From: an uncultured candidate division Zixibacteria bacterium
GTDB taxonomy: Bacteria; Zixibacteria; MSB-5A5; UBA10806
Length of the DNA: 64,000 nt
Assembly (NCBI GenBank): GCA_963801605.1
Contig: CAWDFP010000006.1
Coordinates: 704,001 to 768,000 of the forward strand
Direction: 5' to 3'
Shown here: positions 51,047-60,190 of the stretch, in pieces
Layout of the letters: each line of letters starts with the position of its first letter
Numbering within the stretch: position 1 is the first letter of the stretch
The notes under the pieces: generated by a model
Told to the model about the DNA's origin: nothing
Databases searched by the model: none
What the model saw: the letters and a program-made list of their open reading frames with translations, nothing else
Translations under genes and position numbers: made by a program

Positions 51047-54000
51047 ATGTCAGATAATACCCTTTCAGTTCAGATTCCAACTCAAGCGCCCGCAAGCGAT
51101 AAAGTTCGGCCTGACGCTAGTTCGTTCCAGGCTCAACACATATCAATGTTTAAACTTGGATTCGAGCGATCTTCCGAAGCCATATTCTTCACCGATCTTG
51201 AGGGGATAATCCTTTACGTCAACCCCGCATTTCAGAAAATTTATGGTTATAGCCAACAAGAGGCTATAGGCAATACTCCTCGTATTCTTAAGTCTGGCCT
51301 TCTTTCTCAAGAGAGCTATGTAAATTTCTGGGAAAGGCTGCTAAATAGGGAAGTAGTCTCCGGAGAGTTAGTAAACAAGACCAAGGACGGGCGCTATATC
51401 GTAATTGATGCTTCGGCTAATCCTGTGCTCAATGACGATGGCAAGATAATTGGGTTCCTTGCGATTCAAAGGGATATTACTGAACGAAAACAAGCTTATG
51501 ATGCCTTACGCGAAAATGAAGAACGCTTTCGTACGATTTTTGAAATGGGGCCGTTTCCCATGGTTTTATCGAATAAATCATTCAAATTCATTCGAGCTAA
51601 TGCTGCATTTTGCAGAATGCTGGGATATTCAGAAGACGAACTAACCCAACTTACATTTCAGGATATTACTCATCCTGATTACGTAGCTCGGGATACCGAA
51701 GCGGTTCTAAAGGTTTGTTCGGGAGAACTACCGGTATTTAACGCCGAAAAAAGATATCTGCGAAAAGATGGCAGTATCGTTTGGGGTGCTGTTACCTTGA
51801 GCCGCATATGCAATACCGATGGTCGTCTTTTATACATATTGGCTATGATCGAAGATATTAATGAGCGAAAAATTGCAGAGCAGGCCCTGCGAGAAAATGC
51901 GGAAAGATTCAGAGGCGTCTTCCAAAATGCCACGATAGGCCTATATAGAACCACGCCTGACGGCAAAATTTTAATGGCAAATCCCACGCTAATCAGGATG
52001 CTTGGATATAATTCATTTGAGGAATTGACCGAACGGAATCTTGAAGAATTCGGCCATAGCCAACAACATCCTCGATCCATTTTCAAGAAGATGATGGAGC
52101 AGGTGGGCGTTGTTCATGGACTTGAATCTGTCTGGCAAAAAACCGATGGAAGCTTTGTTCAAGTATTGGAAAGCGCCAGCGCCTTAAAAGACGAAAACGG
52201 TAATATTGTCTTTTATGAGGGTACCGTAGAAGATATTACCGAGCGAAAGCTGGCCGAGGAGGCGTTGCGGGCCTCAGAGGAAAGATATAAGCTGTTAATT
52301 GAAAATGCCAACGATGCCATCTTTGTGGTTCAGGATCAACAAATAATCTTTGCAAACAGCAAAATCTCCGGGATCATTGGATATGATGAAAAAGGAAATT
52401 ATCAACAGGCCATTTTCCGATTTTATTCATCCTGATGATAAGAACATGGTGGTAAAACGCCATCTGGCGCGAATAGCAGGGGAACAAGCAGAAAGCACCT
52501 ATACTTTCCGAGTACTTCATAGGGATGGCAACACCAGGTGGCTGGAAATAAACGCGGTTAAAATTGATTGGCAGGGAAAACCGGCGACCCTGAATTTTGG
52601 ACGCGATATTACAGCGCGCGTCCAGGCCGAAAAGAATATCAAAGATAGCGAGCAGCGCCATCGAATATTATTCGAAAATATGATGGAGGGGCTTGCTTAC
52701 TGCCAAATGATTTATGATGATAAAGGCGATCCGGTAGATTGGATTTATCTCGATGTAAACACTGCTTTTGAGCATCTGACCGGAATAAAAGACGTGGTTG
52801 GCAAGAAAGTTACCGAGATATTCACAAATATAAAGGAAATAACTCCAGAGTTATTTGAAATTTATGGGCGAGTGGCATCATCGGGTCAGCCGGAGACATT
52901 CGAAATTAACTTCAAGCCCTTATCCGCGTGGCTTCACGTTTCGGCCTATAGCCCATCGAAAGGATATTTTGTAGCCGTATTCGAAAATATCACCGGACGC
53001 AAACAAGCAGAATCCCAAATACAAATCGAGAAAGCTTATTTTGAACAGCTGTTTGTAACTGCTCCCGAGGCAATCGTCGTCGGTAACGCCGATGGTAAAG
53101 TTATTCGTACCAATCCGGAGTTTACCCGGATGTTTGGTTACTTCCAGGAAGAGGCGATAGGGAATTTAATCGATGATTTATTAGCACCAGGAGAGACAGC
53201 GCAAGGAGGCCAATTCCCTTACCGTTAGGGCTGCTTTCGGCGAAACCATTATAAGCGAAGGAATCAGATATCGAAAGGACGGTCAGCCGGTCAACGTATC
53301 CATCCTGGGTACCCCGGTCAGGATCGGCGAAGATCAAATCGCAATTTATGCCATTTATCGGGATATCACGGAGCAGAAAAAAGCGGAAGAAGCTCTGCGG
53401 CATAGCGAGAGATTCCTGAAAGACTCGTTTGATGGGATACAGGACGGATTGTGCGTCATAGATCGGGAATTAAATATTCTTCTGGTAAATAAAACCGAGG
53501 AAACAAGATATTCTCATGCCTTACCCCTGGTGGGAAAGAAGTGTTTTCAGGCATATCATGGTAGAACTGTCCCCTGCGAAATATGTCCGACTATTCGCGC
53601 CATGGAGTTGGGGATACCTCAAATGGATCGTATTCCCCTTGATAGCCCGAGCGGAATTACGGCCTGGCTGGATGTTTACGCTTATCCCATGAAAGATGCC
53701 GATGGGAAGATAATCGGGGTAATTGAAAATGCCCGCGATGTGACCGAGAAGAAAGTTGCGGATGAGTTAATTCAGGCCCGTACATTGTTTTTGGCCAGGC
53801 TGCTTGGGTTAACCGATGCCAGTGAATTGGCTACTCTGGCGTTCGAACACATACGTCATTTTATGCCGATAGATGCCGGAGCCTTAACCATAGCCCATAA
53901 CAATAAAGCCGAATACGAACTTGTATTCTCCGCGGATACAGATGAAAACGGAAACCTTTCGGTTACAACTAATCGCGGCTATATTGCGATGGATTCCAAC

Positions 54001-55836
54001 ACTTCCACAGACCGCGTATTTCGAAACGGCCTAAAATTGATCATTCATCGAACCGAAGAAGAAGCCAGCCAAATTATTCCCTTCAACAAAAGTATGCCGG
54101 CTTATAATAATCGCGTTTCAAGATCGCTGGCCTATTTCCCGTTAATAGTGCACGGCAATACCCTGGGAGTCTTCAGTATATTAAGTTATCAACCTGATAT
54201 TTTTACCGAATCGCGGTTAAATCTTCTAGAAATAATAATGGCGGATTTGGCATTGGCGCTGACCGCAGTCAGGATGACTGAAGCCCTCAAGTCATCCGAG
54301 GAGAAATACAGAAATCTCATAGAAACCATGCCGAATGGTATGCTAATAATAGATATCGATTATAATATAAAATTCGCGAATCCCATTGCCTGTGAGATGT
54401 ATGGTTATTCACTATCCGAAATTCTCGATATGAACTTTAGTAAGCTTGTTTGCCAGGATTCGCTCGGTATATTTATGGAGCAAATGCAAAAGCGCCGTAA
54501 TGGCGAGGGCGGGGAATATGAAATACAAATTACGCGTGGAGATGGTGAAAAGCGCACAATTATGATTGTGGGAGCGCCGTTGCGCGATCAAAGCAATGCC
54601 TTTTGCGGAGCGATAGGAATCTGTAGCGATGTTACGGAGATAAGAAGATCAGAAATTGAAAGGCAAGAACTGCGTGAAAAGCTTGCTCGCGCCCAGCGTA
54701 TGGAGTCTCTGGGAGTATTGGCCGGCGGAGTGGCCCATGACCTCAATAATATCCTGGGGCCGCTGGTGGCTTATCCTGAACTGATAAGGATGAAGCTACC
54801 GACCGAAAGCCCAATTATAAATCAGATTACTAAAATTGAATCATCGGCTCAACGCGCCGCGGAAGTTGTCCAGGACCTTCTTTCCATGGCTCGTCGCGGG
54901 CGCTATGAAATGCGTCCTATCTGCTTGAATAAGGTTGTTGAGAGCTATATACAATCGCCGGACTTTTTCGATCTTAAAATGCGATTTCCCGGCGTTTCCT
55001 TAAATTTAGAGCTTTCAGATGACAGGCGTTTGGTATTCGGTTCCGAACTGCATCTCTATAAAGTTGTCATGAATTTAGTCCTCAATGCCATGGACGCTAT
55101 GCAAAATGGTGGCGCTCTCACAATAAAAACGGAATGTCGCCAGATTGACAAATTGATAGGCGGTTACGATAATATTGAAGCCGGCTATTATAATATTCTA
55201 ACCGTCAGCGACACCGGAGTGGGGATTGAAACTAAAGACTACAAACGCCTGTTTGAACCATTTTATACCAAGAAAGAGATGGGCAAAAGCGGTAGCGGCC
55301 TGGGATTGGCAATCGTTTACGGCGTGGTAAAAGATCATAACGGATATATCGATGTGCGCAGCCAGACCGACCACGGGAGCGATTTTATCGTTTATATCCC
55401 TGCCACGTCCGAAATCGCTGTGGAAGATACGCCAGAGCCCTCCTCAATCAAGGGTAACGAGCGTATTCTTATCGTGGATGATATCCCCGAGCAGCGCGAA
55501 TTAGCGGTAACGATTTTGGGAAGTCTGGGCTACAATGCCGAATGCGTTCCCGACGGCCATGCCGCCGTGGAATATCTTAAAACTGGAACCGTTGATGTCG
55601 TTGTACTTGATATGATTATGGAACCGGGGTTCGACGGACTCGATACTTATCGGGAAATTCTGAAAATTCATCCTGGCCAAAAGGCGATTATTACGAGCGG
55701 TTTTTCGGAAACTGATCGAGTCAAAGAAGCCGAAAAATTGGGTGTAGGCAAATATATTAGAAAGCCCTATACCATGCAAAAGCTTGGGAAAGCCATTAGA
55801 GAAACGCTGGATTGCCCGCTCGCCCTCAATACTTAG
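51047..55836 (+). CDS. Cytoplasmic hybrid histidine kinase: about 8 PAS, GAF, HisKA, HATPase, REC; frameshifts near 52390 and 53190-53230
   Basis: Repeated PAS ends (RDITERK); LAGGVAHDLNN H-box; NLVLNAMDA; GSGLGL; ILIVDD...LDMIM...KPY receiver. Confidence 0.88.
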
Positions 55837-57396: not shown

Positions 57397-58915
57397 ATGG
57401 CTGAAAAAAATGATAAACTTCTTGAAGGGTTATACAAAGACATTCGTGAAATCTCGATTCTCAGATCTTGCGAGGCCCTTTTAGATTGGGATGAGAGAAC
57501 TTATATGCCGCGCAACGGCTCGGAGCATCGCGGTAATCAAATGGCCCTCCTGTCCGGCATCGCTCACGAAAAATTCGTATCTCCCAGAATCGGGGATTTA
57601 CTCGATAATCTGCTTAGCAACGGATCGTTATCCAAAAAACGACAATCCTGATGCTGCTAACGTTCGCGAAATTAAGCGAGTCTACGATAAAGCGGTAAAA
57701 CTTCCCAAATCGCTCGTGGAGGAGTTGAGCCGCACCATCATTATGTCCCAGGGGGTATGGCAGGAGGCTAGAGCCAAATCGGATTTCGCAATGTTTAGGC
57801 CCTGGATGGAAAAGGTCGTTAATCTTAAACGGCAACAAGCCGAGGCTATCGGCTATAGCACCGTGCCATACGATGCCGCGCTTGACGATTTTGAACCCGG
57901 AGCGTCAACAGCAAAGATTACGGAGGTATTCGCCGGGCTTCGAGATGAATTGGTATCGCTGATCGCTCGAATTAAGGCCAGTGGCAAAAAACCCGACATT
58001 TCGATAATTACCCGTCAATATCCCGTTGATATTCAAGAAAAGGCTGGTCTCGAAGCAGCCAAAACCATAGGATTTGATTTCATGTCGGGCCGTCTCGATA
58101 TAACGACCCATCCATTCTGTACCGGTATAGGGCCATCAGATATCCGAATCACGACCCGTTATAATCCCAATCATTTTCCGCAAGCTTTCTTCGGTATTTT
58201 GCATGAGGCTGGACACGCTCTTTATGAGCAGGGACTTCCCAAAAATCAATATGGATTGCCTTGCGGGGAGGCAGCATCATTGGGAATCCATGAATCGCAA
58301 TCGCGTATGTGGGAAAACCTGGTCGGACGAAGCTATCCTTTCTGGAAATATTTTTATCCCAGGATTCAAAAAGCTTTTCCTGGCGCCTTAAACGGAACGT
58401 CGCTTGACCAATTTCATTTCGCGGTAAACGATGTTAGGCCGTCGTTTATCAGAGTTGAGGCTGACGAGGCGACATATAATCTTCATATTCTTCTGCGTTT
58501 TGAAATCGAAAGCGCCTTTTTCAACGGCGATCTTAAAATTGCTGATGTGCCTGCTGTTTGGAATGAAAAGTTTAAAAAGTATTTTGGGATCGTTCCAACA
58601 AATGACGCCGATGGGTGTTTGCAGGATGTCCACTGGGCGGCCGGGTTAATCGGTTATTTCCCAACATATACTTTGGGAAATCTTTATTCGGCGCAGTTTT
58701 TCGCGAAAGCAAAATCCGATCTTGTTAATCTCGATGACGCTTTTGGCAAAGGTGATTTTAGCAATTTATTGGGCTGGCTTAGGAAAAATATCCATGCTCA
58801 TGGGCAACGATATCGCGCGGAGGAACTCGTTGAACGAGTTACGGGCAAGCCACTTTTACATCAACCACTAATTGAGTATCTCAATGGAAAATATGGCCAG
58901 CTATATGGCCTTTAG
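57397..58915 (+). CDS. M32 carboxypeptidase; frameshift near 57637
   Basis: LLDWD...MP, HPFC, HEAGHALYEQG, HESQS, IRVEAD, QDVHW, GYFPTY. Confidence 0.93.
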
Positions 58916-58939: not shown

Positions 58940-58970
58940 AAAGGCGACAAACCAGGCAGTCGCCTTTTTT
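58940..58970 (+). terminator. Terminator after the M32 gene
   Basis: AAAGGCGAC-10nt-GTCGCCTTTTTT. Confidence 0.8.
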
Positions 58971-58987
58971 ATTGGGGGCTGTTTCCC

Positions 58988-59211
58988 GGCCCGCGGGTTC
59001 CGCCTTTCGGTCCTTTAGACCGAAAGAAAGAAATCCGATCAGGGGCGCTAGGATGCGAAATCCGGGATTCCAGCGGCAAATAGCCCTCAAATAAATGCGT
59101 CAGTTCCAGTCAGATAAAATCGGAAGCTGAACTGACGCATCCTAAAGCGGAGCAGGCCCTCTGATCGGATTTCGTGCCCCGACTTTGTCGGGGCCGCGGA
59201 ACCCGCGGGCC
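58988..59211. repeat. Nested palindromic element (REPIN/MITE-like or structured ncRNA)
   Basis: Perfect 16-bp terminal IR GGCCCGCGGGTTCCGC plus internal 13-, 12-, 9- and 8-bp stems. Confidence 0.7.
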
Positions 59212-59254
59212 ATGAGTTTGATTGTAATAACCCGGAATACGAGTAACTTTAAGA

Positions 59255-60190
59255 CTATTGACGAACGAACGTCACTTGCACCGAACCATCAGCCGAAATC
59301 GGCCAGGTTTGGGGTTGCTGGTCGGGGACTCCCGAGACAGTGACAGTTCCCTCGTAATGCATGTCGAGTTTAGAGTTCAAAGGCAAACCCGTGGCCTCAT
59401 CGACTTCAATTGTACCATTCTGCTTGCCCTTTATATCGTAAGCCATGGTTAGAGATCCCATAGTGACCGTGCCCGTTGATGAATCAGAGCTGATAGTCGA
59501 GGCCACATCAATGACGGCCTTTCCGTCATTTCTGGATTTTAACGTATATTCGGAATTGATATGCATGGGAAGTCCGCCGGAGGCAATATCGAAATTTGAG
59601 TTCCAGCTATCGCCCGGTACGACAGGTTCAGAAGGGTAAAAAGATGTAATTTGCTCGAGTGATTGCTTCATGGCATCGGTGCCCCACTGTTTTCGAAGAT
59701 CAGCAATAACTTCTTCTTTTTGATCGGGATTGGGCATTGCCATCGCCTTGATCATCTTATCAAGCATGGCATCTACTCCTTTTATTTGAGCGACTTTGCC
59801 GTCGGTGGTCATGCGCACTGTCAAGACTGCCCCGGGCATCGATGCCAACCCTTTCATCGAGGGGTCAAGGTATTCGGGAGGATTATCGGAGTCGTATGAT
59901 GATGATTGCTCGTTGAATTTCTGAGTTACCTTTATGCGTTTGTAGGTCAGCTTGAGATTCATTTCGTTGGATTTCTCAAGACCGGTGACATCATATTTCC
60001 ACTCTTCAAGCATTTCCTGAGAAAGGCTTTGGTTTTGATTCTCAACCGATTGCACTCTGGTCTGGGTCATATCCATTGTGTAAATGTAGCTGGTTTGAGG
60101 TTGAAGATTAAGCCTCAAAACTAATTCGTCGTCGGCCTTGACACTGAACGGCCATAATAGAAGCATTATTATTGTAAGTTTAAGTTTCAT
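59255..60190 (-). CDS. Secreted protein, DUF6263-like
   Basis: Signal peptide; YDSDNP, PVVPGDSW, GTIEVDEATGLP; upstream TTGACA-17-TATATT (60289-60261). Confidence 0.65.
   Translation of the reverse strand: MKLKLTIIMLLLWPFSVKADDELVLRLNLQPQTSYIYTMDMTQTRVQSVENQNQSLSQEMLEEWKYDVTGLEKSNEMNLKLTYKRIKVTQKFNEQSSSYDSDNPPEYLDPSMKGLASMPGAVLTVRMTTDGKVAQIKGVDAMLDKMIKAMAMPNPDQKEEVIADLRKQWGTDAMKQSLEQITSFYPSEPVVPGDSWNSNFDIASGGLPMHINSEYTLKSRNDGKAVIDVASTISSDSSTGTVTMGSLTMAYDIKGKQNGTIEVDEATGLPLNSKLDMHYEGTVTVSGVPDQQPQTWPISADGSVQVTFVRQ

Follow-up and report, generated by a model that had tools for sequence, protein, structure and literature searches.

The window analysed here, a stretch of 64,000 nucleotides from the genome of an uncultured Zixibacteria bacterium, contains a nested palindrome (58988..59211) that can be drawn as a four-way junction, and this locus raises the question of whether such a structure is a repeat on the move, a folded RNA or a feature that the chromosome holds in place. 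The six stems and pairings given for it in the preliminary description are all present and perfectly complementary when checked against the sequence, and together they define a doublet, to which no strand is assigned, in which two REP-derived arms stand head to head on either side of a variable middle. The outer stem pairs over 16 bp (58988-59003/59196-59211). Its left strand (58988..59003, + strand) comprises a site-specific GC extension (58988-58994) and a near-invariant core, GGGTTCCGC (58995-59003), with no GTAG tag, and its right strand (59196..59211, +) the GCGGAACCC core plus extension. Each REP-derived unit has its own inner hairpin, the left one being hairpin A (59004..59026, +; 9 bp), which covaries, and the right one hairpin B (59176..59194, +; 8 bp). 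A 13-bp central stem (59030-59042/59161-59173) then joins a left strand (59030..59042, +) reading GAAATCCGAT, the counterpart of the tail GAAACCCGAC of the R4 REP discussed below, to its right strand (59161..59173, +). The strandless variable middle (59043..59160) is unique to each copy and enriched in remnants of other REPs; in the window's copy it holds an inner stem of 12 bp (59095-59106/59129-59140) and a competing pair of 9 bp (59049-59057/59136-59144).

Folding of the region 58980-59220 yields a z-score of -10.84 as RNA against 200 dinucleotide shuffles and of -10.90 as DNA, with none of the 200 shuffles folding equally well. As previously described, the element is rich in GC (57.6% versus 46.2% for the window), overlaps no ORF of at least 80 aa, and occupies the gap of a convergent pair formed by an M32 carboxypeptidase gene (PF02074; 57491..58915, +) and a gene for a DUF6263 protein (59255..60190, -), the stop codon of which lies 44 nt from the element. 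The terminator that had been assigned to the M32 gene is visible in the sequence as a hairpin with a T run 3' of that gene (58940..58971, +), outside the element, although a terminator scanner gave no call. The N-terminus of the M32 peptidase is encoded in a separate, overlapping ORF (57397-57651 versus 57491-58915), which suggests a frameshift near 57650. Elsewhere in the window, a coding region resembling a PAS-rich sensor kinase (51047-55836) is divided into three ORFs (51047-52435, 52350-53228 and 53449-55836), a split that likewise suggests frameshifts or assembly errors.

The element belongs to a repeat family of narrow distribution. Iterated profile searches recover 23 complete copies in this genome (G000, 87% complete), all of them with both arms (23/23 doublets), and one further, decayed copy at C7:66253. 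At least 23 copies are found in a sister species of the same genus (G001, 69% complete), and one or two sites in each of two other relatives. The order is the same in each copy (GGGTTCCGC, hairpin A, GAAATCCGAT, middle, ATCGGATTTC, hairpin B, GCGGAACCC), and the middle ranges from 10 to 120 nt. All 23 copies in G000 are intergenic, being bounded by ORFs of at least 100 aa or by a tRNA, with eight between convergent, nine between tandem and six between divergent genes on a crude ORF call; the GC skew of C6 shows no clear switch from which a replichore bias of the copies could be read. A strict arm pattern finds 37 matches in G000 and 31 in G001, and at most two per genome in the other 283 genomes of the phylum. 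A covariance model run over 150 relatives contributed one extra doublet, in G002, and a looser pattern three more in G004, from the same family but another genus; two of the three fall within one duplicated 4.3-kb segment. Scanning GTDB-wide with one strict left-arm pattern returned nine loci, all on Candidatus Zixiibacteriota records, and the strict left-arm pattern also gave 13 metagenome matches (ten real arms or elements and three due to chance) and 17 viral matches among those listed, none of them real. Among the listed 9 GTDB, 13 metagenome and 17 viral pattern matches, none is an autonomous copy whose arms enclose an ORF.

The stems of the family covary. In an alignment of 36 copies (21 of the 23 from G000, 13 from G001 and two metagenomic), 94.8% of cells are paired, two-sided changes occur at 23 of 43 pairs and all four helices show covariation, with 141 cells bearing two-sided changes against 43.8 in shuffles and none of 500 shuffles as high, counts that do not amount to a formal probability because the aligned copies are kin. 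In slid-register controls, pairing drops to 30-57%. Together with the strong fold, this covariation is compatible with a multi-copy structured RNA or an mRNA 3'-end element in which the four-way junction acts as RNA, as is the enrichment of copies between convergent genes (8/23 copies versus 216/1476 gaps, p 0.013) and the location of the window's copy 44 nt past the DUF6263 stop codon, where it is likely to be co-transcribed. The mismatches found in stems, however, are strand-symmetric (23 G·T and 22 A·C), which is what inverted repeats in DNA should show and a single folded RNA strand should not. An Rfam search over the window, moreover, returned nothing at the gathering threshold (three chance-level matches, E 5.9-8.7), six of the 23 copies lie between divergent ORFs on the same crude call, no promoter-like site was found at the window's copy, and the element is reversed at 6 of 13 sites shared between species. 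A structured RNA is hence decidedly unlikely, and the 6S-like rod entertained at first is opposed by the same strand symmetry, reversals at orthologous sites and want of an Rfam match.

A tagged REP of the same phylum provides a likely origin for the arms. In addition to the doublets, G000 carries approximately 20 singlets of a GTAG-tagged REP, designated R4, with the structure GTAG-GTCGGGTTCCG-hairpin-AGAAACCCGAC. Of 285 phylum genomes, 129 contain the R4 pattern, whereas the control had no matches. In several genomes R4 occurs as doublets with the units head to head, and it borders RAYT genes in G075, G008 and G013, the RAYT of G075 scoring 105 bits against an NF047646 cut-off of 80. Of the 19 fixed bases, 18 are identical between arm and R4, and their order is the same (CGGGTTCCG, 9/9; AGAAATCCGA versus AGAAACCCGA, 9/10). 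Forms intermediate between the two include the doublets of G002 and G004, in which the tag is already absent and the R4-type inner GAAACCC is retained, and a singlet of G142 that reads GTAG-GCCGGGTTCCGC. This series makes descent from R4 likely, in agreement with the REP/REPIN ancestry anticipated for a multi-copy palindrome. The element is thus a REPIN in anatomy and probably in ancestry, but it bears no tag, and is a variant of that class rather than a member. R4 itself might be among the GTAG families of Di Nocera (2013; PMC3733652), judging from the accessible part of that survey. Two other origins, a GIY-YIG/Ssn partner and derivation of GCGGGTTC from a tRNA T-arm, were abandoned once the far closer match to R4 appeared, and an integron attC site was rejected on the misfit of the element's GTT/AAC order and flanks to the attC consensus. 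A literature search that extended to sources other than subscription journals and bioRxiv supplements found nothing on REPs of Zixibacteria or on tagless, position-fixed doublets.

The missing tag bears directly on mobility. GTAG occupies the tag position at none of 82 element ends (41 copies parsed), as against 15 of 20 R4 copies, and no other fixed tetranucleotide, CGTC included, was found at the element ends. In the available sections of a study of RAYT specificity, substitutions in GTAG abolish both binding and cleavage by the E. coli RAYT, and one Group 3 RAYT tolerates changes to the tetranucleotide, so that tag loss need not mean immobility (PMC8266576). Neither G000 nor G001 yielded a RAYT with the element at its flanks, and the incompleteness of both assemblies (87% and 69%) means that a cognate transposase could be unassembled. 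Those RAYT-like ORFs that were recovered, three in G000 and two in G001, have either other REPs beside them or no REP at all: the Pfam-detected RAYT of G000 was rejected as a partner for having its own, different REP, and two further RAYT-like ORFs located there by tblastn were rejected as well, one being flanked by the R2 REP and the other having no REP. Ten RAYT loci of G002 yielded no arm match, and the RAYT of R4 was found in neither G000 nor G001. The R2-flanked ORF (G000:C6:211086-211734), whose REP has about 28 genome copies, was missed by the Pfam Y1_Tnp search, and a RAYT of G001 (L233, on G001:C206) is bordered by the R1 REP, which is likely the family nested in the window's copy.

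The element is also absent beside all nine small GIY-YIG loci examined. Small GIY-YIG genes show peculiarities of their own. One (L074, G000:C4:5869-6090) is an Ssn-like GIY-YIG gene between an inverted pair of CGTC-type repeats. Three others (L071, at G000:C6:1489287-1489496, L072 and L076) are small GIY-YIG genes directly 3' of a tRNA gene (Gly, Ala); on their own 3' side comes a pseudo-tRNA copy in which hairpins replace the anticodon arm and interrupt the T arm; tandem partial tRNA repeats lie upstream of L072. Nothing was found in the literature on tRNA-adjacent GIY-YIG genes with pseudo-tRNA copies.

The positions of the element are conserved between species. When the flanks of the 23 G001 copies were mapped onto G000 by tblastx, 10 copies had both flanks beside a G000 copy, five had one flank so placed (the G000 copy being the decayed one in one instance), and eight had neither flank near an intact G000 copy, two of these corresponding to syntenic empty sites and one to a remnant. 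The empty sites that the preliminary description had asked after hence exist, and empty and remnant sites together indicate that copies have been gained and lost. An overlap of 10 has a hypergeometric p of 1.5e-13 over 1476 gaps, or of 9e-7 if only 300 gaps are usable, a degree of conservation that rests mostly on one species pair. The tagged R4 singlets of G001 serve as a control, sharing none of 11 sites with G000 (Fisher p 0.014 versus the strict 10/23). Furthermore, at one site a flank is common to G000, G001 and, from a different genus, G004, and a metagenomic copy occupies another shared site. Empty orthologous sites are too diverged for mapping the insertion junctions, at which a MITE would show a target-site duplication, and no empty site is available for the window's copy, as the M32 and DUF6263 genes are non-adjacent in all four relatives having both. 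At G000:C6:1529576-1529779, a position orthologous to a G001 copy, only a remnant is seen, in which direct repeats of TCGGATTTCTCTATCAAT enclose an R1 REP.

The content of shared sites, in contrast with their position, is not conserved. Between species, arm interiors are no more alike at shared sites than in non-orthologous pairs (0.56 versus 0.58, p 0.91), and middles at shared sites are unrelated (0.47 versus 0.46). The outer extension, a few bases beyond the core, is locus-specific (0.63 versus 0.50, p 0.002). In the same set of arm comparisons, which included four mis-parsed B arms, arms were slightly more alike within than between species (difference 0.039, 0/5000 permutations). Within a genome no middle is common to two copies, the most similar pair reaching an identity of 0.61 in G000 and of 0.67 in G001, which argues against any recent duplication of whole elements. 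The intergenic DNA around the copies is largely unalignable between G000 and G001, from which it follows that the arms have outlasted neutral decay. A contig from run X1 over the window's copy (151 nt, depth 2) gives a faint indication of stem retention as well: the 14 listed substitutions all fall outside the paired arms and inner stem, a pattern that would also suit a folded RNA. A single deletion affects the inner end of the 13-bp stem, and two other differences could not be placed.

Shared inverted ends, fixed loci and the reversal of about half of the shared sites between species also recall invertible phase-variation cassettes, in which a site-specific recombinase would flip the DNA between the GGGTTCCGC inverted repeats. 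The size of the element resembles that of known invertible promoters. Against such cassettes, middles shrink to 10-15 nt and share no motif, eight of the 23 copies lie between convergent genes, and wherever independent assemblies of a locus were compared, they agree in orientation; this explanation is very improbable. A better candidate, though still a doubtful one, is a REPIN population that remains active, in which an unassembled or tag-tolerant RAYT would excise and rewrite elements, so that the same extragenic spaces were overwritten again and again, in one orientation or the other. There is precedent for overwriting by RAYTs in Pseudomonas chlororaphis, according to the accessible portion of the report (bioRxiv 10.1101/2024.10.14.618302), and the within-species similarity of arms, the reversals and the empty sites all fit. 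In G001, four arms that combine GGGTTCC->GGGTCCC with AAATCC->AAGTCC preserve the hairpin of the single unit, although four other GGGTCCC arms do not. R4 singlets, moreover, occupy unshared sites in G000 and G001 even though the R4 RAYT is seen in neither, so that little weight attaches to the failure to see a RAYT. On the other side stand the lack of GTAG or of any other fixed tetranucleotide, RAYT-like ORFs in both genomes that keep company with other REPs or none, the low identity of even the most similar middles, and the absence of an ORF-bearing copy among the listed pattern matches. Taken with the conservation of positions across species, these observations speak against the proposal that the element is moved today as a unit by a RAYT.

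The variable middle appears to record the later history of the element. Remnants of three other REP families were detected at 12 bits in 9 of 42 middles of at least 25 nt, compared with 21 of 2000 random intergenic pieces. These three families also occur free in the genome, and two flank RAYTs of their own in G000 or G001. The layered insertions that had been suggested for the palindrome are in keeping with this enrichment. In the window's copy, the segment 59048..59145, to which no strand is assigned, is likely to be a decayed nested REP doublet, in which CTAGGATGCG and TTAGGATGCG ends enclose a GCGTCAG...CTGACGC hairpin (59095-59140). Judged by eye, the inner stem of 12 bp matches that of free GCGTCAG...CTGACGC repeats such as G000:C6:1529634-1529669, with no score from the R1 profile, and the ends of the competing helix, CTAGGATGCG and TTAGGATGCG, resemble GTAG-tagged starts elsewhere in the genome. 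The competing helix is therefore probably the remnant of a second REP doublet nested in the middle, in which monomer and doublet folds would compete as in any REP pair. It is found in the window's copy alone, other copies being without it, which makes the regulatory switch at first proposed unlikely; the nested remnant is the better reading.

Set against these alternatives, the reading that we judge moderately probable is that of an immobilised REPIN variant, kept by the host at fixed intergenic sites, with an interior flipped or converted by recombination between arms and between copies. We infer the following course of spreading, recombination and selection. In an ancestor within the family, an R4 doublet would have lost its tag, leaving a RAYT unable to cut beside it. 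The tagless doublet would have reached a few dozen sites early and stayed there thereafter. Crossing-over or template switching between the inverted outer arms, of 12-20 bp, together with gene conversion between copies, would then have flipped and homogenised the whole stretch from one GGGTTCCGC core to the other, the outermost bases remaining with the locus. The neutral middle would meanwhile have gathered other, still mobile REPs. Lastly, the stems would be under selection, likely as a putative DNA hairpin or cruciform or as a protein-binding site, with possible side effects on mRNA 3' ends at loci like that of the window's copy.

A more elaborate form of this idea involves a RAYT homologue that lacks the HUH motif (PSILY, PSTLY and PSAMM in its place) and that is encoded at L250 (G000:C7:362094-362621), L251 and L252. 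Its identity across the three genus genomes is 57-66%, no REPs flank it in G000 or G001, and at E 1e-38 it is absent from the other 282 of the 285 phylum genomes. In sequence it looks like a domesticated, catalytically dead transposase. If the REPIN system were fully domesticated, some two dozen fixed sites on the chromosome would form four-way-junction DNA and function both as invertible cassettes open to exchange and as stations for protein binding. The protein serving them would be this HUH-less homologue, which is found only in three carriers of the element. That link is weakened by G004 (93% complete), which has the element and no HUH-less orthologue at E 1e-38, by the grouping of the HUH-less protein with a RAYT clade different from that of R4, and by the kinship of the three carriers, and full domestication is quite unlikely.

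The element bears on the open question of the role of REPs and REPINs in their hosts and of their persistence. The presence in the same genomes of a tagged, mobile REP and of a tagless, position-locked doublet provides a built-in control, in which singlet sites are unshared and doublet sites shared. If confirmed, the immobilised REPIN variant would represent the passage of a REP family from passenger to fixed chromosomal feature, and would supply about ten named loci for testing selection on structure, with direct tests limited by the uncultured host.

Several known systems resemble the element in part. The SRM/NTS repeats of Ssn GIY-YIG nucleases, as presented in the accessible text (PMC11893778), are likewise hairpin repeats in inverted pairs, and such a system is present in G000 at L074; the element differs from them in having no CGTC tag and in its absence from the small GIY-YIG loci noted above. 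The catalogue of Di Nocera (2013; PMC3733652), in its available sections, describes GTAG- and CGTC-tagged REP dimers and TIR repeats, with 24 GTAG families, and matches the element in its head-to-head heterodimers and variable spacers while providing a precedent for REPs inside other palindromes; the element, in contrast, bears neither tag. REPINs as they appear in the consulted parts of the literature are extragenic, hairpin-forming pairs of inverted REP units with conserved ends and a poorly conserved spacer (PMC3116915; bioRxiv 10.1101/2021.07.10.451892). The element has this layout, and its arm matches a RAYT-flanking REP of other Zixibacteria, in the manner of the REPINs and RAYTs of Bertels and Rainey (2011). 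It departs from the REPINs of those sources in the lack of GTAG, in having no cognate RAYT found in the carrier genomes, in sites shared across species, in about 23 copies rather than hundreds, and in heterodimeric arms that generate a four-way junction. A further parallel is offered by the P. chlororaphis REPINs analysed with REPORTH, for which the accessible portion of the report gives a mixed REPIN type at 13 of 20 fully conserved extragenic spaces and suggests RAYT overwriting (bioRxiv 10.1101/2024.10.14.618302). There, as here, the space stays occupied while its content changes; those REPINs lie within one species and track a resident RAYT, whereas the element occupies sites shared between species, in one case beyond the genus, is reversed at some of them and has no cognate RAYT in view.
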